A stretch of 60,904 bases of DNA from IMG/VR virus record IMGVR_UViG_3300029778_000003, positions 1 through 60,904 of that record; one strand, 5' to 3'. The notes beneath the pieces are model-generated. The model did no database searches, was not told where the DNA came from, and saw only the letters and a list, made by a program, of their open reading frames with translations. The stretch's first letter is position 1, and the number at the start of each line of letters is the position of its first letter. Source of the DNA: a virus. Position numbers and translations under genes: made by a program. Shown here one piece after another: positions 17,019 to 60,627 of this stretch.

Positions 17019-17201
17019 ATGAAAATAATTAAAAAGGGTGATTTGAACATAGCCAAAAAACCACTAAGATTTAAATGCAAGAATTGTTGGACGATTTTTG
17101 AAGCGATTGAAGAAGAATATATATACTGTGGCGACCAACGAGAGGGCGATAACTGGAAGTGCGAATGTCCTTTGTGCCACAAAATGGTTTATTACAGCTA
17201 A
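17019..17201 (+). CDS. Small zinc-ribbon protein
   Basis: MKIIKKGDL..FKCKNCWTIF...WKCECPLCHKMVY. Start moved to the ATG after gagggga. Confidence 0.5.
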   Translation: MKIIKKGDLNIAKKPLRFKCKNCWTIFEAIEEEYIYCGDQREGDNWKCECPLCHKMVYYS

Positions 17202-17241
17202 AATAATGATTGCTGATTATCAACAGAAAGGGGAACATATT

Positions 17242-18450
17242 ATGGCTGATTTGAAAATATTTACAGAAAATATAGAACATGAAGCATTAAATCAGATATA
17301 TACGCTTGTAAAACAGCCGGCATTTTCGGATTGCAAGATAAGAATTATGCCAGATGTTCACGCGGGAGCAGGGTGTGTTATAGGATTTACTGCTGATTTA
17401 GGAGAAAAAGTAATACCGAACATTGTTGGAGTTGACATAGGCTGTGGGATGCTTACTACAAACTTGGGGAATATTGATATTGATTTTGAGAAATTAGATA
17501 ACGTCATTAGAGAATATGTTCCAAGTGGTAGAAGGGTTCATGAAGAAGAAAACTCATCTGTCGCAAGCGATATTATTGAAAAATTGTATTGCAAGGAACA
17601 GTTGAAAAATATAGATTGGCTGAAAAGAAGTTGCGGCACGTTGGGAGGCGGCAATCATTTTATCGAAGTTGATAGCGATAGCAAGAATAATAAATATCTT
17701 GTTATTCATTCGGGAAGTAGAAATGTCGGAAAGCAAGTCGCAGAAATATATCAGCAAATGGCGATTGCTGATATTTCGGGAAAATCGAATTTTAAACAAG
17801 ACAGTGAGAAATTGATTGCTGAATACAAAAAATGTAAAAGAGAAAGAGAAATCAGCAAGGCTATTAAAGAATTAAAGCAGTCCTACGAAAAAAATACAAC
17901 TAAAATCCCTAGAGAGTTATCATATCTTGTTGGGAAACATAGAGAAATGTATTTACACGATATGAAATTATGCCAAGAGTTTGCGGAAATTAACAGAAGA
18001 GCCATTCAGAGCATTATTTGCTACTATATGGGTTGGAACGTTACAAAAGAAACGGAGCGATTTCAAACGATTCACAACTACATTGAACACGATACAAATA
18101 TTGTCCGTAAAGGTGCTATTTCTGCAAAAGCGGGGGAAAAAGTACTAATACCAATAAACATGCGTGACGGTTGCATTTTGGGAATTGGCAAGGGAAATGA
18201 AGACTGGAATTATTCAGCACCGCATGGAGCGGGGCGAACTATGAGTAGGTCAAAGGCAAAAGAAAGCATTTTGCTAGAAGAGTATCAAAAAGCAATGGAC
18301 GGAATATTTACAACATCTGTAAATACATCCACGATTGATGAAAGCCCTATGGCATATAAAACAATGGATGAAATAATTGGACATATAAAAGATACCGTTG
18401 AAATAGTTGACATTATAAAACCGATTTACAATTTCAAAGCAAACGAATAA
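17242..18450 (+). CDS. rtcB: RtcB-family RNA 3'-phosphate ligase
   Basis: MPDVHAGAGCVIGFT, GGGNHFIEV, IHSGSRNVGKQVA, PHGAGR are the metal- and GMP-binding motifs of RtcB. ATG 17242 preferred over the ORF-track start. Confidence 0.92.
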   Translation: MADLKIFTENIEHEALNQIYTLVKQPAFSDCKIRIMPDVHAGAGCVIGFTADLGEKVIPNIVGVDIGCGMLTTNLGNIDIDFEKLDNVIREYVPSGRRVHEEENSSVASDIIEKLYCKEQLKNIDWLKRSCGTLGGGNHFIEVDSDSKNNKYLVIHSGSRNVGKQVAEIYQQMAIADISGKSNFKQDSEKLIAEYKKCKREREISKAIKELKQSYEKNTTKIPRELSYLVGKHREMYLHDMKLCQEFAEINRRAIQSIICYYMGWNVTKETERFQTIHNYIEHDTNIVRKGAISAKAGEKVLIPINMRDGCILGIGKGNEDWNYSAPHGAGRTMSRSKAKESILLEEYQKAMDGIFTTSVNTSTIDESPMAYKTMDEIIGHIKDTVEIVDIIKPIYNFKANE

Positions 18451-20910: not shown

Positions 20911-21132
20911 ATGAATAATCAGAATATTAATATTGTACCAACAGGAAAACGAAGTGTAATGTGCCCTCGTTGCGGTAAATTGCTAACGTGGGTGAATAAA
21001 AACGATAAGAAGCACCACAAAGTAATGTGTACGCACTGCCGTAAATGGATATGGTTTTGGGCTGGCACACAAGAATTTCAGATAAAAGAGGTTCCGCAGA
21101 GAACTTCTGCAAGTGGCATGAGGTTTTATTGA
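20911..21132 (+). CDS. Zinc-ribbon protein, Mu Com-like by eye
   Basis: MCPRCGKLLTWV...VMCTHCRKWIWF has two CxxC pairs. Confidence 0.5.
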   Translation: MNNQNINIVPTGKRSVMCPRCGKLLTWVNKNDKKHHKVMCTHCRKWIWFWAGTQEFQIKEVPQRTSASGMRFY

Positions 21133-24308: not shown

Positions 24309-25400
24309 ATGGCATTACCATTAGCAGAAGCATTTACAGCGAGAAGCCTCGGTGTAATGTGGGATAACTACAAAAAGACATTAGGAACTGCCCCTTATCT
24401 TGGCAGACAAAAATTCGGAACACGTAAACAGGACTCACTTGACCTTAGATTTATCAAGGGTAAGAACGGACTGCCGGTATCGCTCAAAGCTTCAAACTTT
24501 GACGCACAGGCAGAGTTAAGAGATGTTGGAGGCTTCTCTGACATTCAGAACTCAATGCCATTTTATCGTGAGGGATATATGGTAACAGAGAAAGAGGAGC
24601 AGGAGTACGACAATTACAGAACTTCTGAAAACTCTAGCCTTGCCAATAACGTATTACGTGAAATCTCTAAGAAACCAATGATGTTAATTGAGGGCGCATT
24701 AGTTGTACCGGAGAGACAGATTTGGCAGTTACTTGCACCTACAGATGGTGTACCAAAGGTAAAGGTTGTACTTGGCGATAAGAACTATGTCGTTGATTAC
24801 ACAGCCGACAATGGTGCAGAGCATAAGGAAAAGCACTTTAAGTCAATTACCGGCACAAGTGCATGGGATAAGCCTACCACATGTGCACCGCTTGATGACC
24901 TTATCACAGCTCGTAGAGACTTTGCAAAGGCTACAGGCTACTCACTTACACGTTTTACCATGAATACAGAGACTTGGGAAATGGTGCTTAAGGCAGAGGA
25001 CACAAAGAAACAGGTACTCGGTATCACTGCTTACAATGGCGGTATCAGATTACAGCAAGGACAGGTTACTGAATACCTTAGAGGATATGGTATCGAGATT
25101 GAAGTATACGATAAGCTCTATGTTGACGAGTCAGGGCAGACACAGTACTTTGTACCAACAGGTATTGTATCTGCGCAGTCTGCCGGAGTATTCCTCGGCG
25201 ATTACACATTCGGTAAGACTCCAGAGGAAAGAAGCGGAAGTATCACAGACGGAAACCTCTCACTTGTTGAGACAGGTGTATCTGTATACACATATGCTAC
25301 AAATCATCCTATCAATACTCACTGTATCGTATCTATGATTGGATTACCTACATTCGAGGGTATGGATAGCGTTATGGTTCTCAAAGTTAAGGAGGATTAA
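24309..25400 (+). CDS. Major capsid protein (lambda gpE-like)
   Basis: 363 aa, strong aaggaggt RBS. Position and size fit; N-terminus MALPLAEAFTARSL..WDNY resembles the gpE family by eye. Confidence 0.8.
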   Translation: MALPLAEAFTARSLGVMWDNYKKTLGTAPYLGRQKFGTRKQDSLDLRFIKGKNGLPVSLKASNFDAQAELRDVGGFSDIQNSMPFYREGYMVTEKEEQEYDNYRTSENSSLANNVLREISKKPMMLIEGALVVPERQIWQLLAPTDGVPKVKVVLGDKNYVVDYTADNGAEHKEKHFKSITGTSAWDKPTTCAPLDDLITARRDFAKATGYSLTRFTMNTETWEMVLKAEDTKKQVLGITAYNGGIRLQQGQVTEYLRGYGIEIEVYDKLYVDESGQTQYFVPTGIVSAQSAGVFLGDYTFGKTPEERSGSITDGNLSLVETGVSVYTYATNHPINTHCIVSMIGLPTFEGMDSVMVLKVKED

Positions 25401-37459: not shown

Positions 37460-38953
37460 ATGGCAATTCAAATGAGACGAGGGGCATACGCGGAGTTTGA
37501 CCCCTTAAAAATGAAAGCCGGAGAATGGGCGGTATCGACCGATTCCGACACGAAAAAACAGCAGATATGGATGTGTTTTGCACCCGGAATAGTTAAGCGA
37601 ATGGGAACTGTTGAGGATTTTGACGTTGAAATTCAAAGACTTATTCAGAGTTACCTTGACGGCATGGCTCAATCCGTGTCACAGGCTCAAAAATCAGCAC
37701 AAACTGCGACAGAAAAAGCCAACTCAGCAAGCAGTTCTGCTTCACAAGCTCAAAAATCGGCAGAACTTGCCACAAGCAAAGCTCAAGAATCAGCTACTTC
37801 TGCAAACAATGCTAAGGCAAGCGAAACAAAAGCCAAGGCTTCTGAAACCAATGCTAGGACAAGTGAGGACAGTGCGTCTATCTCTGCACGTAACGCTAAG
37901 ACAAGCGAAACAAATTCTAAGGCCAGTGAAACTAATGCTAAGAAATCAGAGGCTAATGCGTCTACAAGCGCAGCTAACGCAAAAAACAGTGAAACTAATG
38001 CCAAGGCTTCTGCTACTAGCGCGTCAACTTCTGCAAACAATGCTAAGGCAAGCGAAACAAAAGCCAAGGCTTCTGAAACCAATGCTAGGACAAGTGAGAC
38101 TAACTCTGCAAAGAGCGAGTCGGAAGCGCAAAAGTACGCAGAACAAGCCAAAGAAATATCTGAGAGCTTAAGTGGAGCATTAAGACCTCTTGGAACAATT
38201 AACTTTGCCGACTTACCGAGCACAGCGAATGCCACTTCCGGTGATATGTACAACATAGCCGACCAATTTACCACAACCACTGGTTTTAAAGAGGGGGCCG
38301 GTAATATAATCCCCGCCGGCAGTAATGTATATCTGACAATCGACAGATATTGGGATGTGCTTGCCGGCACACCGGTAACAGGAGTAAAAGGCGCAAAAGA
38401 AGCTTATTATCGCAGAGGAAATGTAAACATAACTCCTGCCAATATCGGAGCGGTTGCAGAAGGTGGAAATATAAGCGATACAACAGTTACTTTTGCCGCT
38501 ACAACAACTAGAGCAAACCTTGTTTCTGGTGAAAAAGTGTCGGTCGGCTTCGGAAAAATTAAGAAGTGGTTCGCTGATTTGAAAAGCTTTGCCTTTAAAG
38601 ATTTGGCGAATAACCTCACGACTTCTACCACTGGAAACGCATTAGACGCGAGTCAAGGCAAGATTTTGAATGACAAATACGATGAATTAAACCAGAGTTT
38701 AGGTAATATGCATTTGGTTCATTTAGAAAGTCAACGAATTAATGGAGTAGGATATTCATTTGTATATATTGGCTATAAAACTGGATACAGACTTATAAAT
38801 GTTATAGTTAATTATAATACTTCTAGCAAAGGAAATTATCGAATAAATACAATTCAATATGACGATACAAATAAAGTGTATGTGGTATATATAAATCAAA
38901 CACTTGCATCAGGTAGTTATTTGCTTGCCGATTTAATATATATGTCTGAATAA
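37460..38953 (+). CDS. Tail fibre with Ser/Ala/Thr/Asn/Glu-rich repeat shaft and C-terminal variable domain
   Basis: 497 aa. (A/T)SETNAKAS heptad-like repeats. Exact 72-bp direct repeat 37796-37867 = 38027-38098. C-terminal 83 aa follow the LNQSL junction. Confidence 0.8.
   Translation: MAIQMRRGAYAEFDPLKMKAGEWAVSTDSDTKKQQIWMCFAPGIVKRMGTVEDFDVEIQRLIQSYLDGMAQSVSQAQKSAQTATEKANSASSSASQAQKSAELATSKAQESATSANNAKASETKAKASETNARTSEDSASISARNAKTSETNSKASETNAKKSEANASTSAANAKNSETNAKASATSASTSANNAKASETKAKASETNARTSETNSAKSESEAQKYAEQAKEISESLSGALRPLGTINFADLPSTANATSGDMYNIADQFTTTTGFKEGAGNIIPAGSNVYLTIDRYWDVLAGTPVTGVKGAKEAYYRRGNVNITPANIGAVAEGGNISDTTVTFAATTTRANLVSGEKVSVGFGKIKKWFADLKSFAFKDLANNLTTSTTGNALDASQGKILNDKYDELNQSLGNMHLVHLESQRINGVGYSFVYIGYKTGYRLINVIVNYNTSSKGNYRINTIQYDDTNKVYVVYINQTLASGSYLLADLIYMSE
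38687..38702. repeat. Left inverted repeat / putative crossover site within the tail fibre gene
   Basis: ttaaaccagagtttag. 15 of 16 nt are the reverse complement of 39375-39390. Encodes LNQSL. Confidence 0.85.
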
Positions 38954-42983: not shown

Positions 42984-44966
42984 ATGAAGATTACACATGT
43001 ATTTGCACAGAATTTTTGTAAATTCTATGGCAAAAACACATTAGACACAGATTTTTCAATGAAAACTGTGTTATCCGGTCAGAATGAAGTCGGCAAATCG
43101 ACAGTTAAGAGAATTATTCTTGATGTGCTGAATTGTCACGATGAGAACGACAGAGAGATTACAGGCATAAGACCGCACGATGAAAACGGAGTTGAGATTG
43201 ACGATGTTGACATCACAAGAGCCGTTACCTTTGAGGTTGACGGAAAAGCAAAGACTCTGAAAAAGGTTACAAGGCAGAAACGTAACAAAAAGGGTGAGAT
43301 TACAGGCAGCGTTACTGATTATTCAATCAATGACGTGCCGTATAAAATGGCAGACTACAATCAGTACATCAATGACAACATGGCAGAGCTTGGAGTATTA
43401 CCATTTTGCTTAAATGCCATGACACTGCTTAACAAGTCACAGGCAGAGCAGAGATTAGCGCTTGCAAGCTATTTTGGAACACATACTGATGAAGAAATCT
43501 GCGATATGTTTCCACAGTTTGCCGAACTTAAGCCAATGTTTGACGATGGGGATGTAGACCAGCTCAAAAAAGTATGCCGTGGCAAGCTGAACGGCACAGG
43601 TGGTAGGAATGGCTCAAAAGGACTTGTCAAGGAAAGAGACGAAATCTCAACAAGGATTGATACAATTCATTCTACCAATGAGTATACAGACCTTGCAGAG
43701 CTTGAATTACAAAAGAAAACCTATGAGCCGCAGCTTAAGGAAATTGAAGATAAGCTGTCCGACTACAATAAGATTTTAGAGGATAAGCAGAAAGCCACAG
43801 AAGACATTATGAGCCTTAAATTTGAGCTTTCTGATATGGAGAGAAAAGCTAATGCCGAAAATCAGAAAAAGCGCATGGAGCTACAGTTACAGATTGATGG
43901 CTTCGACGCTTCAATCCGCAAAACAGAGTCAATGATAAGAGTTGGAAAAGCTAGCATTAAAAGCTCCGAAAGAGAGATTGGAGATTGCGCAATAGACTTA
44001 GCAAAGGTACGTGCTGACTGGAAAAAAGCAAAGGCACTTTCCTTTGATGAAAGCAGTGTTAATTGTCCGATGTGTGGTCAGAGATTACCGGAAGATACAA
44101 TAGAGAGTTTGAGAACTGATTTTAGTGATAAAAAATTGAAGAAGCTTAAAGAGCTTGAGGATAAGGGCAATTCATTATCAAATGACAGTAAGGAACTCAA
44201 ACAGGCTATTGAGGATAAGAAGAAAGAAATAGCTGACCTCGAAGCAGAACTTAAGGAGCTGACAGAAAAGCGTGATACTGTTGCTAACAAGTTTGAACGT
44301 GATAACATCGCTGAAGAGCTTGGAATGGTACCTACTGATATTGATATGACAGGTAACAGTGAGTATCAGGCACTTAAAGCTAAAATCGAGGAAAAAGAGA
44401 AAGCTCTTGCCGATGAAAATGATACATCGGAACTTATCAGAAAGTTCAAAAACGAGCGAAACGAACTGTTAAGGCAAGTTTCATCAGTTGATACAAAGAT
44501 TGAGCTTGGTGTGGCGAATAACAAGCGTATAGATGATAGCATAGCTGACCTTGAAAATAAGAGAACAGACCTCAATCAGGAGATAGCCGATTGGGAGAGA
44601 AAGCTTGATTTGCTGAAAGAGTTTACTCGCAAGAAGAATGAGCTTTTACAGGCTGACGTTAATAAGTATCTGAATTTTGCCACAGCAAAGCTGTTTAGAC
44701 CGCTCTTAAATGGTGATACCGAGGAGTGCTGCGACTTTGTATACAATGGTGAAGCATATGCGAGAAATCTGAATCATGGTGCGAGGATGCTGACAGAAGT
44801 TGATATATGCCGAGCTTTTCAGAAAGTGGCAAACGTTAATTTCCCAATTATCATTGATGATACAGAGAGCGTTGACGATTGGAGAATACCACAGATTGAT
44901 AACCAGTTGATTATGTTAAAACATACACAGGATAAAGAGCTTGTGATTGAAAATATGGAGGTATAG
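42984..44966 (+). CDS. Rad50/SbcC-like ATPase with coiled coil and CxxC zinc hook
   Basis: Walker A SGQNEVGKST, about 350 aa of heptad-rich sequence, central CPMCGQ, C-terminal PIIIDDTESVD (Walker B/D-loop-like). Confidence 0.8.
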   Translation: MKITHVFAQNFCKFYGKNTLDTDFSMKTVLSGQNEVGKSTVKRIILDVLNCHDENDREITGIRPHDENGVEIDDVDITRAVTFEVDGKAKTLKKVTRQKRNKKGEITGSVTDYSINDVPYKMADYNQYINDNMAELGVLPFCLNAMTLLNKSQAEQRLALASYFGTHTDEEICDMFPQFAELKPMFDDGDVDQLKKVCRGKLNGTGGRNGSKGLVKERDEISTRIDTIHSTNEYTDLAELELQKKTYEPQLKEIEDKLSDYNKILEDKQKATEDIMSLKFELSDMERKANAENQKKRMELQLQIDGFDASIRKTESMIRVGKASIKSSEREIGDCAIDLAKVRADWKKAKALSFDESSVNCPMCGQRLPEDTIESLRTDFSDKKLKKLKELEDKGNSLSNDSKELKQAIEDKKKEIADLEAELKELTEKRDTVANKFERDNIAEELGMVPTDIDMTGNSEYQALKAKIEEKEKALADENDTSELIRKFKNERNELLRQVSSVDTKIELGVANNKRIDDSIADLENKRTDLNQEIADWERKLDLLKEFTRKKNELLQADVNKYLNFATAKLFRPLLNGDTEECCDFVYNGEAYARNLNHGARMLTEVDICRAFQKVANVNFPIIIDDTESVDDWRIPQIDNQLIMLKHTQDKELVIENMEV

Positions 44967-45349: not shown

Positions 45350-45526
45350 ATGGAAGAAATAAGAACAAATCTATCAAAAGAAGATGTTCTACACAATATG
45401 CTTGAGCTTGTCGGCTATTTAGTCGAACAAGAGGAAGAGGTAGACGAGATTGAGGTAAAAGTGAAAGATTTGAATATGCAATTTAAAGCATGGAGAGATG
45501 AGAAGCAAAGAGAGGAGAATCGATGA
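45350..45526 (+). CDS. Small acidic coiled-coil protein (58 aa)
   Basis: ATG 45350. MEEIRTNLSKEDVLHNMLELVGYLVEQEEEVDEIEVKVKDL... Confidence 0.5.
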   Translation: MEEIRTNLSKEDVLHNMLELVGYLVEQEEEVDEIEVKVKDLNMQFKAWRDEKQREENR

Positions 45527-46662
45527 GTATAAAAGGATATAAGGCATTTAACAGAGGAATGATATGCAAAGGCAAGCAATACGAAGAAAATACTACTTAC
45601 GAAGAAAAAGGAAACAAAATATGTGAAGCGGGTGTAATGCATTTCTGTGAAAATCCATTTGATGTGTTGAATTATTATCCACTTATTGATGAAGATGGCA
45701 ACATTTCAGATTTTGCAGATGTTGAAGCTATTGGAGATATTTATAAAGGAAAGGATAAAACAGCTACAAATAAGCTCCATATTGGTGCAAAACTTGGGCT
45801 TAAAGGGTTTATTAAGGCTTGCGTAGATTTTACAATTGAGAAAACAAAAGTTGAGACAGTCAAAGCAGACGATGTTGGTATCAGTAGTGGAGATTCCGCA
45901 AAGATAGGCAGTAGTGGAGATTACGCAAAGATAGGCAGTAGTGGAGATTACGCAAAGATAGGCAGTAGTGGAGATTACGCAAAGATAGGCAGTAGTGGAG
46001 ATTACGCAAAGATAGGCAGTAGTGGAGATTCCGCACAGATAGGCAGTAGTGGAGATTCCGCAAATATAGGCAGTAGTGGAGATTCCGCACAGATAGGCAG
46101 TAGTGGAGATTCCGCACAGATAGGCAGTAGTGGAGATTACGCACAGATAGGCAGTAGTGGAGATTACGCAAAGATAGGCAGTAGTGGAGATTCCGCAAAG
46201 ATAGGCAGTAGTGGAGATTCCGCACAGATAGGCAGTAGTGGAGATTACGCAAAGATAGGCAGTAGTGGAGATTCCGCACAGATAGGCAGTAGTGGAGATT
46301 CCGCAAAGATAGGCAGTAGTGGAGATTACGCAAAGATAGGCAGTAGTGGAGATTACGCACAGATAGGCAGTAGTGGAGATTCCGCAAAGATAGGCAGTAG
46401 TGGAGATTACGCAAAGATAACATCAGAAGGTAATAACTCTGTGGTTATGGCAGCAGGCTGCAATTCAATAGCAAAGGCAAAAATCGGTAGTTGGATAACA
46501 TTAGCCGAATGGATTAGAACTGATAAAGCAAATGATAGTGGTAATTATATATGGATTCCTAAGTGCGTAAAAACAGAATATGTAGACGGAGAACGTATCA
46601 AAGAAGATATATTCTATAAATTAGTTGATGGCGAATTTAAAGAAGTAGAAAGCGAGGATTAA
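45523..46662 (+). CDS. Repeat protein: DUF7666-like N-domain, 20 nonapeptide IGSSGD(S/Y)A(K/Q) repeats, C-terminal domain
   Basis: N-terminal KGYKAFNRGMICKGKQYEENTTYEE..CEAGVMHFCENPFDVLNYY resembles a phage/Firmicute family I know only as a domain of unknown function. Confidence 0.85.
   Translation: MSIKGYKAFNRGMICKGKQYEENTTYEEKGNKICEAGVMHFCENPFDVLNYYPLIDEDGNISDFADVEAIGDIYKGKDKTATNKLHIGAKLGLKGFIKACVDFTIEKTKVETVKADDVGISSGDSAKIGSSGDYAKIGSSGDYAKIGSSGDYAKIGSSGDYAKIGSSGDSAQIGSSGDSANIGSSGDSAQIGSSGDSAQIGSSGDYAQIGSSGDYAKIGSSGDSAKIGSSGDSAQIGSSGDYAKIGSSGDSAQIGSSGDSAKIGSSGDYAKIGSSGDYAQIGSSGDSAKIGSSGDYAKITSEGNNSVVMAAGCNSIAKAKIGSWITLAEWIRTDKANDSGNYIWIPKCVKTEYVDGERIKEDIFYKLVDGEFKEVESED
45877..46416 (+). 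repeat. Tandem array: one degenerate unit plus 19 units of 27 bp (ataggcagtagtggagatt[c/a]cgca[aag/cag/aat])
   Basis: Counted by hand from 45904 to 46416 (19 x 27 = 513 bp). Units are identical except at codon 7 (tcc/tac) and codon 9 (aag/cag/aat). Confidence 0.95.
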
Positions 46663-46664
46663 TT

Positions 46665-47552
46665 ATGGCAGAGAATACAGCAGTTGCGGAAAAGAAAGAA
46701 GCTGAAAGCAGAGAGCTTGTAGCAAAAGATTTTACAGAGGGAATGGTTGTGAAAATCAAGCAGAAAGAGAAATTTGGCTTGACATTTCCTAAAGATTACA
46801 ACTATACAAATGAGCTTATGTCGGCAATGCTTATCTTACAGGACACACAGGATATGAATAAGAAGCCTGTATTACAGAGCTGCACAAGGGCAAGTATCGA
46901 AAATGCACTTATTGAAATGGTGACAGACGGATTATCAATAAGAAAGAAACAGTGTTACCCAGTCGCTTATGCGGGCAAATTAAGCTGTCAGCCGTCTGTT
47001 TATGGTGCGACTTGTCTTGCTAGAAGATATGGGCTTAAAGACATTAATGCATCAGTTATTTATAAAGGAGATGTATTCAAGTACCACAAAGAGGATGCAA
47101 AGACAATTATTGATTGCCACGAACAGAGCTTTGAGAATATCGACAATGACAAGATTGTTGGTGCTTATGCAGTAGCAATTATGGGAAATGGTGAGAAGAT
47201 TGCAGAAGTTATGACTATGGCACAGATAAAGACAGCTTGGAAACAGGGATACGGATATAAGGAGACCGGAAACGGAGTTCATCAGAAATTTGCAGACCAA
47301 ATGGCTATGAAAACTGTTAAAAACAGACTTCTCAAAGCTATCAACAATACTCATAGCGGTTTTGGTAAAGAAGATGATTACGAGGAAATCAGCCGCGATG
47401 AAATGCTTGAACAGGATGTTGCTTATGATATTGAGCAGAACGCAAACACAGTAGATTTTGACGAGGACAACATAATTGATGTAGAGCCGACCGACACGGC
47501 CGACAAGCAGTCAGAGGAACTGCCGCCGTTCATGCAGAGTGAGGAGAGCTGA
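46665..47552 (+). CDS. recT: RecT-family single-strand annealing protein
   Basis: KKQCYPVAYAGKLSCQPSVYG..RRYG..GAYAVAIMGNGE pattern. Acidic C-terminal tail. Confidence 0.8.
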   Translation: MAENTAVAEKKEAESRELVAKDFTEGMVVKIKQKEKFGLTFPKDYNYTNELMSAMLILQDTQDMNKKPVLQSCTRASIENALIEMVTDGLSIRKKQCYPVAYAGKLSCQPSVYGATCLARRYGLKDINASVIYKGDVFKYHKEDAKTIIDCHEQSFENIDNDKIVGAYAVAIMGNGEKIAEVMTMAQIKTAWKQGYGYKETGNGVHQKFADQMAMKTVKNRLLKAINNTHSGFGKEDDYEEISRDEMLEQDVAYDIEQNANTVDFDEDNIIDVEPTDTADKQSEELPPFMQSEES

Positions 47553-47553
47553 T

Positions 47554-47886
47554 ATGAGAGTAATTTCACAGGATGGAACACTTGATATGCCATATGAAGA
47601 GGTGATTATTCAGAGATTCAGGTCAAGAATTTATTTTCTGAATAAAAACTTAACAGGCGTTGAGTCGCTTAGTGATGACATGCAAATTGCTGAATATTCC
47701 ACCGAAGCAAAGGCAATTAAGGCTATGGAAATGTTGAGAGAACATAATGAGGGTGTAATTTTTCTCAAAACAATAATAAATACCGAAAAAGGTACTACGT
47801 TCGTAAGTAGTTTGTCGAAAACTGATTTTAACAAGCTGACGCAGAATTACTTTCAGTTCCCACAGGATGATGAAATCGAGGTGTGA
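47554..47886 (+). CDS. Hypothetical protein
   Basis: ATG 47554 after gaggagag. 110 aa. Confidence 0.55.
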   Translation: MRVISQDGTLDMPYEEVIIQRFRSRIYFLNKNLTGVESLSDDMQIAEYSTEAKAIKAMEMLREHNEGVIFLKTIINTEKGTTFVSSLSKTDFNKLTQNYFQFPQDDEIEV

Positions 47887-47888
47887 GT

Positions 47889-48233
47889 ATGAGAATTATT
47901 AAAGGCAAAGAAAAAGAATACAAGGATTGGTACGACAAGAATAGTGACGGATACAGCAGAGCTTGCTTCACTTATGCTGAAAGGTGGGCTGAACTGTTAG
48001 AAGCAGAAATTGACAAGAGCAATGATATTAAGAAGTGCCTCGTTGATAACGCAGACAGATTGAGCCGTGAAGCAGACACAGAGGGTATAACAGAATTTAT
48101 GTACGGATGTGCAGTTAGCATTCTTTCGCAGTGCTGGGAATACGGAGAGTATTTGAGAAAATGGCACAATAAAGAGTATGACTATGACGGGAAAGGCGTT
48201 GTTAATCCAGCGCTTATGAGGATAAGCAAATGA
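47889..48233 (+). CDS. Hypothetical protein
   Basis: ATG 47889 after gaggtg. 114 aa. Confidence 0.55.
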   Translation: MRIIKGKEKEYKDWYDKNSDGYSRACFTYAERWAELLEAEIDKSNDIKKCLVDNADRLSREADTEGITEFMYGCAVSILSQCWEYGEYLRKWHNKEYDYDGKGVVNPALMRISK

Positions 48234-48960
48234 AACTTAAATGCTTAGGCTCATCGTCAGCCGGAAATTGCTATCTGCTAACTTCCAACAATGGAGAAAC
48301 ACTTATCCTTGATTGTGGAATACCGATTAAGGAGATTGAAAAAGGCTTAGATTGGCACATAAGGGGGATAAGGGGCATGATAATAAGTCATGCCCACCTC
48401 TAGACCATAGCAAGTCATTAAACGATTTTAAGGCTATGGGAATACCGATTTATGCACCATATTTGAAGATTGATTATATGTCAATGAATATGGGCGAATT
48501 TACAGTAAAACCCTTTGATTTAACAACAATAGACGGAAATTGGACACACACAAATGCAAACGGAACACCTTGCCCGATATTCGGCTTTCTGATTACTCAT
48601 AAGGAAATGGGGAGAATGCTTTACATAACCGATTGTGAGGTTGTCAAATGGAAATTCAAAGATATAAACCACATTCTATTAGGTGTGAATTATGACAAGG
48701 ATTTAATTGACAGGGATAACACAGGCAAAGCTAATCACGTTTTCAGAGGTCACTTAAGTATTGACACGGCTTGTGATTTTGTTAAGGCAAATTATTCAGA
48801 TAGCTTGCAGAATGTCATAATGTGTCATCTATCAAGTGAAAATGCTGATAGAGATAATTTTATCGAGAAGATGAAAAAAGTCGCTTGCGGGGCAAATGTG
48901 GATGTTGCAGAGCGCAACAAGGAATGGGCTTTAAGGAAAGGGGATGAATGTCCATTTTGA
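48230..48960 (+). pseudogene. Metallo-beta-lactamase-fold protein, reading frame broken inside the HxHxDH motif
   Basis: Frame A (ATG 48230): MKLKCLGSSSAGNCYLL..ILDCG..IISHAHL then TAG at 48401. Frame B continues LDHSKSLNDFKAMGIPIY... to 48960. Deleting the ta at 48401-48402 would restore HAHLDH. Confidence 0.7.

Positions 48961-59640: not shown

Positions 59641-60597
<957 letters not shown>

Positions 60598-60627
<30 letters not shown>

Follow-up and report, generated by a model that had tools for sequence, protein, structure and literature searches.

The window analysed here, a 60,904-nucleotide (nt) stretch of viral DNA (IMG/VR virus record IMGVR_UViG_3300029778_000003, positions 1 to 60,904), contains a gene at 45523-46662 in which a 27-bp unit is repeated head to tail. 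The question raised by this locus is why units that are otherwise identical in their DNA differ from each other at a few fixed codons. We lean, with moderate confidence, towards the reading that the gene encodes an early cytoplasmic protein with a beta-helical rod that carries a fast-evolving, mixed binding surface maintained by selection, and a role in host interaction or anti-defence is favoured. The gene and its repeat region are as follows (aa, amino acids):

45523..46662, plus strand: the whole gene, encoding a 379-aa early protein with a DUF7666 head, a helix, a nonapeptide rod and a C-terminal beta domain

45877..45903, plus strand: degenerate first unit at the array edge (GGTATC..., GISSGDSAK), which deviates within its first 6 nt (in-frame listing)

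45904..46416, plus strand: nineteen perfect 27-bp units, IGSSGD[S/Y]A[K/Q/N] (in-frame listing, Tandem Repeats Finder and pattern search)

46417..46497, plus strand: three degenerate 9-aa units, ITSEGNNSV, VMAAGCNSI and AKAKIGSWI, which continue or cap the rod and are conserved in relatives

Tandem Repeats Finder places the array at 45882-46419 with a period of 27, 19.9 copies, 95% matches and a score of 950. Together with the in-frame listing, this confirms an earlier reading of the window made from its sequence only (the sequence-only reading), which described 19 near-identical 27-bp units preceded by one degenerate unit. The perfect units 1-19 have the sequence ATAGGCAGTAGTGGAGATT[A/C]CGCA[A/C]A[G/T], in which A or C at nt 20 gives Y or S, and A or C at nt 25 gives K or Q. 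At nt 27, G is replaced by T in unit 6 alone, which changes K to N, and there are no further variable nucleotides in the nineteen units. The N at residue 9 is a singleton in the window and is present in 2 of the 1,791 units that were pooled from all arrays. The mosaic of residues 7 and 9 in units 1-19 reads YK YK YK YK SQ SN SQ SQ YQ YK SK SQ YK SQ SK YK YQ SK YK, and both this order and the confinement of variation to codons 7 and 9 agree exactly with what had been listed before. Codon 6 encodes D in every unit of the window, but is a third variable position (D/Y/N) in relatives. The unit pattern gave 19 matches in the window and none in each of 100 dinucleotide-preserving shuffles, and the pattern search found no copy of the unit in the window outside the array.

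We compared 129 distinct arrays with a total of 1,791 units, taken from 151 related loci and the window. The filter by which units were recognised fixes the amino acids at six positions and leaves the synonymous sites and the variable codons unconstrained. The 129 arrays have 62 different synonymous backbones, and the serine codons flip between AGY and TCN across entire arrays. Diversity at the synonymous sites is 0.44-0.66 between the consensus sequences of the arrays and only 0.01-0.06 within them. Since synonymous sites differ between arrays and are uniform within them, these data show that each array is homogenised by concerted evolution, so that the units of one array share their codons. 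The continuing homogenisation that had been proposed for the window is thereby substantiated.

Three non-synonymous sites have a within-array diversity (H) of 0.41-0.46 and are polymorphic in 93-95% of the arrays. The three sites, each mixed within arrays, are position 1 of codon 6 (nt 16; G/T/A for D/Y/N), position 2 of codon 7 (nt 20; C/A for S/Y) and position 1 of codon 9 (nt 25; A/C for K/Q(R)). The window uses two of the three, at residues 7 and 9. The residues H, C, F and E are each one mutation away from the residues in use, and each is found in at most 2% of the 1,791 units. Homologous arrays vary in unit number and at codons 6, 7 and 9 and are not ordinary divergent repeats, and the positional restriction of variation first seen in the window thus holds in relatives, together with restricted residue alphabets. 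Neutral sites could not stay so polymorphic in a homogenising array, which leaves two explanations, namely selection for the mixture or hypermutability of the sites.

Targeted hypermutation, for example by a diversity-generating retroelement (DGR), would explain the three variable sites by mutation rather than by selection. In its favour, codon 6 is of the NAY type preferred by DGRs and takes the values D, Y and N, and the within-array diversity at the three sites is more than 10 times that at synonymous sites. However, no reverse-transcriptase domain was found among the 30 largest or neighbouring open reading frames (ORFs) that were scanned, and the window contains no second copy of the unit that could act as a template. 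Most adenines of the unit are constant, hardly any variation is seen at the second A of codon 6, and the outcomes are limited to two or three residues. Closely related pairs of arrays differ by indels of 4-7 units, with zero changes at the variable sites. The missing reverse transcriptase and template, the invariant adenines, the restricted outcomes and the indel-only pairs make hypermutation highly improbable, and the array was rejected as a DGR target.

The turnover of units was examined among close relatives. A protein search yielded at least 8,000 close homologues, all with E < 1e-5. The closest relatives have lengths that step by nine residues (289, 298, 307 ... 379), and the frame stays open, the 27-bp unit being a multiple of 3. 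A phase-variable contingency locus, i.e. a simple sequence repeat switch, was rejected because the unit keeps the frame upon changes in copy number. The mosaics of close relatives are partly the same, with block indels of 1-6 units between them (P0005/P0008, P0003/P0012, P0016/P0027 and P0017/P0022). In the 600 nt of non-repeat coding DNA (354 nt N-terminal and 246 nt C-terminal), the window is 100% identical to four related loci, L001, L002, L003 and L010; their neighbouring genes are mostly 89-98% identical to those of the window, and a few are also identical in L001 and L002. There are 19 perfect units in the window and in L001, 12 in L002, 17 in L003 and 13 in L010, and the orders differ. 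Among all relatives with 100% identical non-repeat gene sequence, the number of perfect units ranges from 11 to 19, and indels are the sole difference between the arrays of L001 and L002 (7 units), L009 and L013 (7 units) and L021 and L080 (4 units). These comparisons show that whole units of the 27-bp array are gained, lost and shuffled in frame, and the length polymorphism anticipated by the sequence-only reading is a property of these relatives. In the mechanism that we propose, replication slippage or unequal homologous recombination would quickly reshuffle the unit types. A part for RecT, which the sequence-only reading suggested, would be a weaker point of that reading, with RecT homologues in only 24 of the 154 related loci.

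A different source of variation in unit number and order would be the mis-assembly of short reads. Many related metagenome contigs end within the array (L030, L034, L054, L056, L059, L062, L072, L074 and L077), and in one contig of 43 kb, CAVAWW010000011.1, the gene is cut in two, with one half at either end (L092 and L099). Moreover, the mosaic of the window was matched nowhere else in exact-match scans, and an exact protein lookup found no identical copy of the window protein. Against an artefact, like arrays are present in the cultured phages SEN22, P7869 and Montmirail and in the complete chromosome of Segatella copri HDD04 (L095), and identical arrays were recovered from independent samples or loci (L013/L014, L037/L038, L003/L004 and L088/L089). 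The frame is open, and mis-assembly cannot yield restricted residue alphabets. We therefore give an assembly artefact very little credence. The contigs that end inside the array indicate that such arrays break short-read assemblies of gut phages and often define the contig termini, which is a practical point for the assembly of these genomes.

Two of these loci, L088 and L089, lie about 90 kb apart on one scaffold of Prevotella sp. oral taxon 376 F0043 and have identical 16-unit arrays and flanks; they are probably two copies of one prophage. Six proteins in the databases (P0125, P0139, P0146, P0153, P0186 and P0258) switch to out-of-frame translations of the repeat (e.g. ATTPRSAAR...), which suggests frameshift errors or genuine frameshifts within the array in public assemblies.

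Outside the repeats, the protein contains three elements, for which AlphaFold2 models gave predicted local distance difference test scores (pLDDT) as stated:

45529..45819, plus strand: N-terminal DUF7666 domain, aa 3-99 (Pfam match; pLDDT ~85-95)

45796..45849, plus strand: connecting alpha-helix, aa 92-109 (DSSP on the AlphaFold2 model; the 10-residue blocks spanning it have pLDDT 92 and 78)

46498..46659, plus strand: C-terminal small beta domain with a hairpin and two short strands (pLDDT 82-91)

The gene starts with an ATG that overlaps the stop codon of the upstream ORF (ATGA), and a GGAG is located 5 nt upstream of this ATG, at 45514-45517. An ORF on the opposite strand, 45881..46423, is a mechanical by-product of the repeat, and we take the plus-strand frame as coding, since two conserved domains outside the repeats are joined in it. 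The match to the Pfam profile of DUF7666 (PF24703) has an E-value of 5e-26 and 91.5 bits, relative to a cut-off of 27, and covers positions 1-95 of 95. An alignment with 18 diverse members showed that residues K7, F9, C15, G37, H40, C42, P45 and Y52 of the head are invariant and that C34 is near-invariant, and the head thus has the conserved residues of the domain (K-G-F/Y...C...C..G.H.C..P....YY). The Cys/Cys/His/Cys residues could, as judged from this alignment, form a CCHC metal site. The strands of the C-terminal domain in the model are E324-336, E342-353, E364-368 and E371-375. The whole protein matches PHROG 4433, and PHROG 27197 covers aa 279-375; both are uncharacterised. No sequence relatives were found in PDB for the C-terminal domain or for the head, using the profile of the N-terminal domain, and a search of BFVD returned only DUF7666 proteins and uncharacterised viral proteins. 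The protein belongs to DUF7666, a large family of phage proteins that is catalogued but uncharacterised, and the gene is a new member of it. The evidence best fits a protein that has no signal peptide and is expressed early, and is therefore probably cytoplasmic.

The repeats of the window protein match the NCBIfam model NF007410 of the Escherichia coli protein YdhT (E 1e-36). The score of 126.5 bits is below the equivalog cut-off of 300, and the alignment spans only the repeats and the start of the C-terminal part. A single BLASTP comparison aligned the window protein with YdhT in register over 132 aa with 38% identity and an E-value of 2e-26, which is inflated by the repetition. YdhT (NF007410; PF27195) has homologous 9-residue repeats (x-R/Q-I-A/G-S-x-G-x-x; the units of the window protein share the form h-(A/G)-S-x-G) and a similar C-terminal region. 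However, its repeats are divergent, fixed in number and not homogenised, the gene is chromosomal, and the N-terminal domain is helical rather than DUF7666. The identity of the window protein as a YdhT equivalog was rejected, since the score fails the whole-protein cut-off and the N-terminal domains differ. In E. coli K-12, ydhT (L153:3748-4560) is the last gene of the ydhYVWXUT oxidoreductase operon.

The AlphaFold2 model of YdhT, based on 26 orthologues, has a pLDDT of 92 and a predicted template modelling score (pTM) of 0.87. It is a beta-solenoid with a 4-residue strand every nine residues, and the region equivalent to 46417..46497 closes the solenoid. The top Foldseek matches of this model are all parallel beta-helices (CAP/CARP, SufB/D, tailspikes and pertactin), albeit without significance. 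The strand and loop in each nine residues of YdhT speak for the solenoid face that the sequence-only reading had put forward. Each 9-residue unit of the window protein would, by homology with the YdhT model, form half a coil of a narrow parallel beta-helix, with a strand of K/Q9-I1-G2-S3 and a loop of S4-G5-[D/Y/N]6-[S/Y]7-A8, in which G5 would make the turn. According to the alternation of residues along a strand, the conserved I1, S3 and A8 would face inward, and residues 6, 7 and 9 would line an exposed ridge. With about 23 units, the rod would measure roughly 5 nm in length.

The literature on YdhT gave only a machine-learning feature list and a deletion in Serratia symbiotica. In the latter, a 54-bp (2 x 27) deletion arose during experimental evolution in a gene annotated as ydhT_1 (PMC12505973). 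This deletion, in a gene known by annotation alone, is compatible with the loss of units in real time.

The family as a whole is much broader than the close relatives of the window protein. The head domain was found in 2,395 clusters at 50% identity (E 1e-3 or better), and 67 of 150 diverse head-domain representatives have clear repeats, mostly with a period of 9 or 18 and some with 8 or multiples of 8. Most of these repeats follow the logic h-(A/G)-(S/A)-(S/N)-G-[D/Y/N]-x-(S/A)-(K/Q/R). The hosts span Firmicutes, Bacteroidota (including the complete S. copri chromosome), Proteobacteria and Melainabacteria.

Three members are encoded by cultured phages: gp35 of SEN22 (Salmonella), XRA42147 of P7869 (Pseudomonas) and WAK79228 of Montmirail (Blautia). 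They have the same architecture as the window protein, with a DUF7666 head, a helix, near-identical 9-aa repeats and a C-terminal beta domain, and they also share with it the location in an early operon and variation after a conserved glycine. The Montmirail unit is GASSNTG[DYN][RWC], with 15 units that vary only at nt 16, 19 and 21, the SEN22 unit is SAATNTG[DYN][CRWL], with 21 units that vary only at nt 16 and 19-21, and the P7869 unit is SAASNTG[DYNS][RYQ]. In Montmirail and SEN22, the variation in the DNA is restricted to codons 6-7. The unit consensus IGSSGDxAx of the window differs from S-A-A-(S/T)-N-T-G-x-x or G-A-S-S-N-T-G-x-x in the three cultured phages. A D/Y/N position after the conserved glycine is common to the three phages and to family arrays of the window type, although the window itself lacks the D/Y/N polymorphism and has an additional variable K/Q position.

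The head domain is also present in giant viruses (Hyperionvirus, Sylvanvirus and relatives of mimivirus), in proteins among the BFVD matches that are annotated as ankyrin-repeat or DUF4116 proteins. This suggests that a conserved head is joined to interchangeable repeat scaffolds, and the DUF7666 head may be a module common to viruses of bacteria and eukaryotes.

What does selection act on in these arrays? In the reading that we favour, selection would keep the mixture of Tyr, Ser, Asp, Asn, Lys and Gln on the exposed ridge, and the outcome would be a binding surface that is combinatorial and evolves fast, flanked by a head and a C-terminal domain that are both conserved. The main rival is a structural spacer, in which the repeats form a stalk of variable length and the mixture is selected for folding or solubility instead of partner recognition, such that like-charge or tyrosine ladders and the amyloid-like aggregation of perfect repeats are avoided. 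Several features of the units are in line with such a spacer. Their net charge averages -0.07, i.e. it is near neutral, with a D frequency of 0.55 roughly balancing a K/R frequency of 0.50. Within units, there is an excess of DY and YS and a deficit of YY and DS, which favours roughly one aromatic residue in each unit. At lag 1, there is a slight avoidance of the same residue (z about -2.3), and the order of units is otherwise near random. On the other hand, the composition is over-dispersed between arrays (index 1.8-4.6) and not tightly balanced. The alphabets are narrow, with F, H, C and E nearly absent although they would be equally able to serve solubility or stacking, and across phyla, unit consensuses that are unrelated have variation at the same two or three positions, again with the D/Y/N alphabet. 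We consider a spacer unlikely, but it deserves more weight than any of the other alternatives to a selected binding surface.

The genomic setting bears on the role of the protein and on a further alternative. The window represents a temperate gut phage, with an integrase (1667-2854), an SPP1-type portal, a major capsid protein, a GH25 lysin and an RtcB ligase. The repeat gene is located in an early operon, downstream of a Bro-N/ORF6C protein, an ATPase resembling SMC, Rad50 and LmuB, and small ORFs. Downstream of it are, in this order, RecT, a 115-aa ORF, a Tad4 homologue, a gene with a metallo-beta-lactamase fold, and SSB. The named neighbours are:

42984..44966, plus strand: 660-aa coiled-coil ATPase like SMC, Rad50 and LmuB, upstream in the same operon (NCBIfam and PADLOC matches)

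46665..47552, plus strand: recT, starting 3 nt past the stop codon of the repeat gene (Pfam RecT, E 1.7e-33)

47883..48233, plus strand: Tad4 homologue, two genes downstream (Pfam PF25186, E 5.7e-35)

48230..48960, plus strand: metallo-beta-lactamase-fold gene resembling Apyc1, in two overlapping ORFs

The sequence-only reading regarded an early position as odd for a protein of this kind, which did not hold up, since an early location is the rule in the cultured phages. The family gene of SEN22 is in the early-left operon, past N and sieB and ahead of the exonuclease gene exo, that of P7869 is downstream of cI and ahead of an exonuclease, and that of Montmirail is among replication genes.

The setting also speaks against a collagen-like or tail-fibre-like structural protein of the virion. 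Such a fibre would account for the matches of the repeat region to PHROG tail-fibre families (E 4e-12 to 7e-4), to Pfam Collagen, to collagen chains in PDB and to the Scl adhesins in NCBIfam, and some homologues are annotated as 'collagen-like'. However, these matches cover only the low-complexity repeats, and the Pfam Collagen match has 0 stretches that pass alone. The triplets of the unit are GSS-GDY-AKI, in which every third triplet lacks glycine, and there is no proline. The gene is part of the early operon and distant from the structural module, where the portal is at 21045, the capsid at 24309 and a tail-fibre candidate at 37460. A virion fibre is the least probable of the explanations considered. 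Two specific identities were rejected accordingly: collagen (PF01391) or an Scl adhesin, for which the matches are compositional, one triplet in three starting with Ala and Pro being absent, and a tail fibre, for which the PHROG matches are confined to the repeats and the gene lies in the early operon.

A role in anti-defence or host takeover is favoured because of the Tad4 and Apyc1-like neighbours and because the gene occupies an accessory slot in early operons. Tad4 is an inhibitor of type I Thoeris that binds ThsB (EVADES supplement, citing 10.1016/j.cell.2024.12.035). The weakest step in the proposed mechanism is the last one, in which the early cytoplasmic protein would bind a host macromolecule or a competing element. 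A number of observations weigh against a selected binding surface. The order of the units is almost random, with no clear lag-2 period in the autocorrelation at lags 1-7, there is no parity preference in the number of units, and the composition is over-dispersed between arrays; the near-random order and the over-dispersion suit a surface selected for binding, but they also suit a loosely constrained heteropolymer. The repeat region of the window protein itself was modelled by AlphaFold2 at a pLDDT of only 33-61, and no Foldseek match to a beta-helix reached significance (E > 0.4). That residues 6, 7 and 9 are exposed was deduced from a model of a distant cellular homologue, YdhT, with an in/out alternation rule and not from coordinates. 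No function, ligand or phenotype is on record for any member of the DUF7666 family, the repeat protein has no PADLOC match, and DUF7666/PF24703 is absent from the EVADES anti-defence supplementary files that were searched. Diagnostic stretches of the window array had no match in the exact-match scans of IMG/VR and metagenome contigs. Finally, most of the compared arrays are from short-read metagenome assemblies, with many contigs broken in the array, and part of the apparent shuffling could be assembly error. Searches of PDB with Foldseek, using models of the window protein and of YdhT, gave nothing at E < 0.4, and neither these nor the sequence searches found a solved relative for any part of the window protein. 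The protein was rejected as a member of a catalogued anti-defence family, since it is outside PADLOC and the EVADES files searched and only its neighbours, Tad4 and the Apyc1-like protein, belong to such families.

A more specific alternative to a generally mixed surface is a modular code, in which each unit would read one element of a periodic ligand and the order of the units would be informative. Transcription activator-like (TAL) effector arrays consist of near-identical DNA repeats with fixed variable positions, repeat gain, loss and shuffling, and degenerate edge repeats, and it was the same kind of pattern that led to the discovery of the TAL effector code. The window array shares these features, i.e. 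near-identical units, variable residues at fixed positions, gain, loss and shuffling of units, and degenerate edges. However, TAL repeats are alpha-helical hairpins of 33-35 aa that read DNA bases, whereas the units of the window are 9 aa and predicted to be beta, and there is no relationship in sequence or fold between the two proteins. Candidate ligands for a modular code would be the nucleotides of an extended single-stranded DNA (ssDNA) or RNA, or the residues of a polymer. In addition to the evolutionary signature, the D/N/Y/S and K/Q/R/W/C alphabets are typical of residues that contact bases, RecT and SSB in the neighbourhood handle ssDNA, and the head contains the invariant Cys/Cys/His/Cys residues. 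Against this, there is no evidence of nucleic-acid binding, and a straight beta-helix with a rise of 4.8 A does not match the geometry of B-DNA. No target-like periodic sequence turned up, although none was sought. Furthermore, only 24 of 154 related loci contain a RecT homologue, so that the adjacency to RecT is no family-wide property. We regard a modular code as a long shot. The same low standing applies to the idea that the DUF7666 arrays are a beta-helix recognition scaffold, analogous to TAL effectors, which would be reprogrammed by the shuffling of repeats during arms races. As part of such a scaffold, each half-coil may present a code of D/Y/N, then S/Y or R/W/C, then K/Q, with which it would read successive elements of a periodic ligand, for example ssDNA or RNA in extended form, or a host polymer or filament with a repetitive structure.

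Other proteins with short repeats resemble the window protein less closely. RTX beta-rolls (GGxGxDxUx) also have a period of 9, are Gly/Asp-rich and have, like the prediction for the window, a beta structure with two strands per coil, and there are weak sequence matches in PDB to the RTX blocks of haemolysin and CyaA (E 0.017-0.16). However, the RTX register is G-G-x-G-x-D as compared to G-S-S-G-D in the window, and the window protein is probably cytoplasmic and not type I secreted. The Asp is replaced by Tyr in 28% and by Asn in 13% of the 1,791 units, and this free replacement in relatives makes a Ca2+-binding turn unlikely. With the motif also offset by one residue, an RTX identity was rejected. 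The pentapeptide-repeat beta-helix proteins Qnr and MfpA are likewise solenoids of very short repeats, and some DUF7666 proteins are instead annotated with pentapeptide repeats, but the period is 5 rather than 9. The near-neutral net charge of the units does not indicate a DNA-mimic surface.

The pattern that emerges is that concerted evolution erases the differences between units except at two or three residues, deduced to be exposed, which are kept mixed in almost every array. The family is very large and occurs in temperate phages of Firmicutes, Bacteroidota and Proteobacteria. The searchable literature contained nothing on 'DUF7666' and nothing relevant on 27-bp or nonapeptide repeats in phages, and we found no description there of family-wide repeat-variable residues under concerted evolution. 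If the binding surface is real, the family would give phages a widespread means of interacting with their hosts that can be re-programmed rapidly and has known anti-defence genes next to it, and it could also provide a compact natural scaffold for the engineering of binders.

Some additional observations concern the neighbouring genes. The Tad4 homologue at 47883-48233 marks the early operon as a carrier of anti-defence genes. The Pfam mark for Apyc1 on the L003 orthologue of the metallo-beta-lactamase-fold gene is weak. In the window, the Apyc1-like gene is divided into the ORFs 48230-48403 and 48352-48960, and the split falls exactly inside the HxHxDH motif (…SHAHL* / …PPLDHS…), with two additional nucleotides at CTC-TA-GAC. 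The same split, into 57-59 aa and 201-203 aa, is also called in the relatives L001-L004, and candidate explanations are a frameshift that has been conserved, a programmed one, or a pseudogene that these loci have in common. The 660-aa ATPase has weak matches to SMC, Rad50 and SbcC and to the PADLOC models of LmuB and JetC, and is kept in 47 of 154 related loci with a median identity of 32%.

Elsewhere in the window, the RtcB RNA ligase (17098-18450, E 2e-57) is encoded just upstream of the packaging and head genes. Its substrates may be tRNA or RNA that anticodon nucleases of the host have cleaved, which it would repair. The 497-aa putative tail-fibre gene at 37460-38953 matches an alanine-zipper and a phage fibre repeat, and contains an 84-bp repeat at 37811-37964 (1.8 copies, with a 21-bp sub-repeat). 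A gene for a C-5 cytosine methyltransferase has its N-terminal part at the end of the window (59641-60627) and its C-terminal part at the start (77-799), which shows that the window is circularly permuted. Inside this gene is a (GACA) tract of about 15 copies at 60421-60479, and the methylase may be phase-variable via this tetranucleotide repeat.

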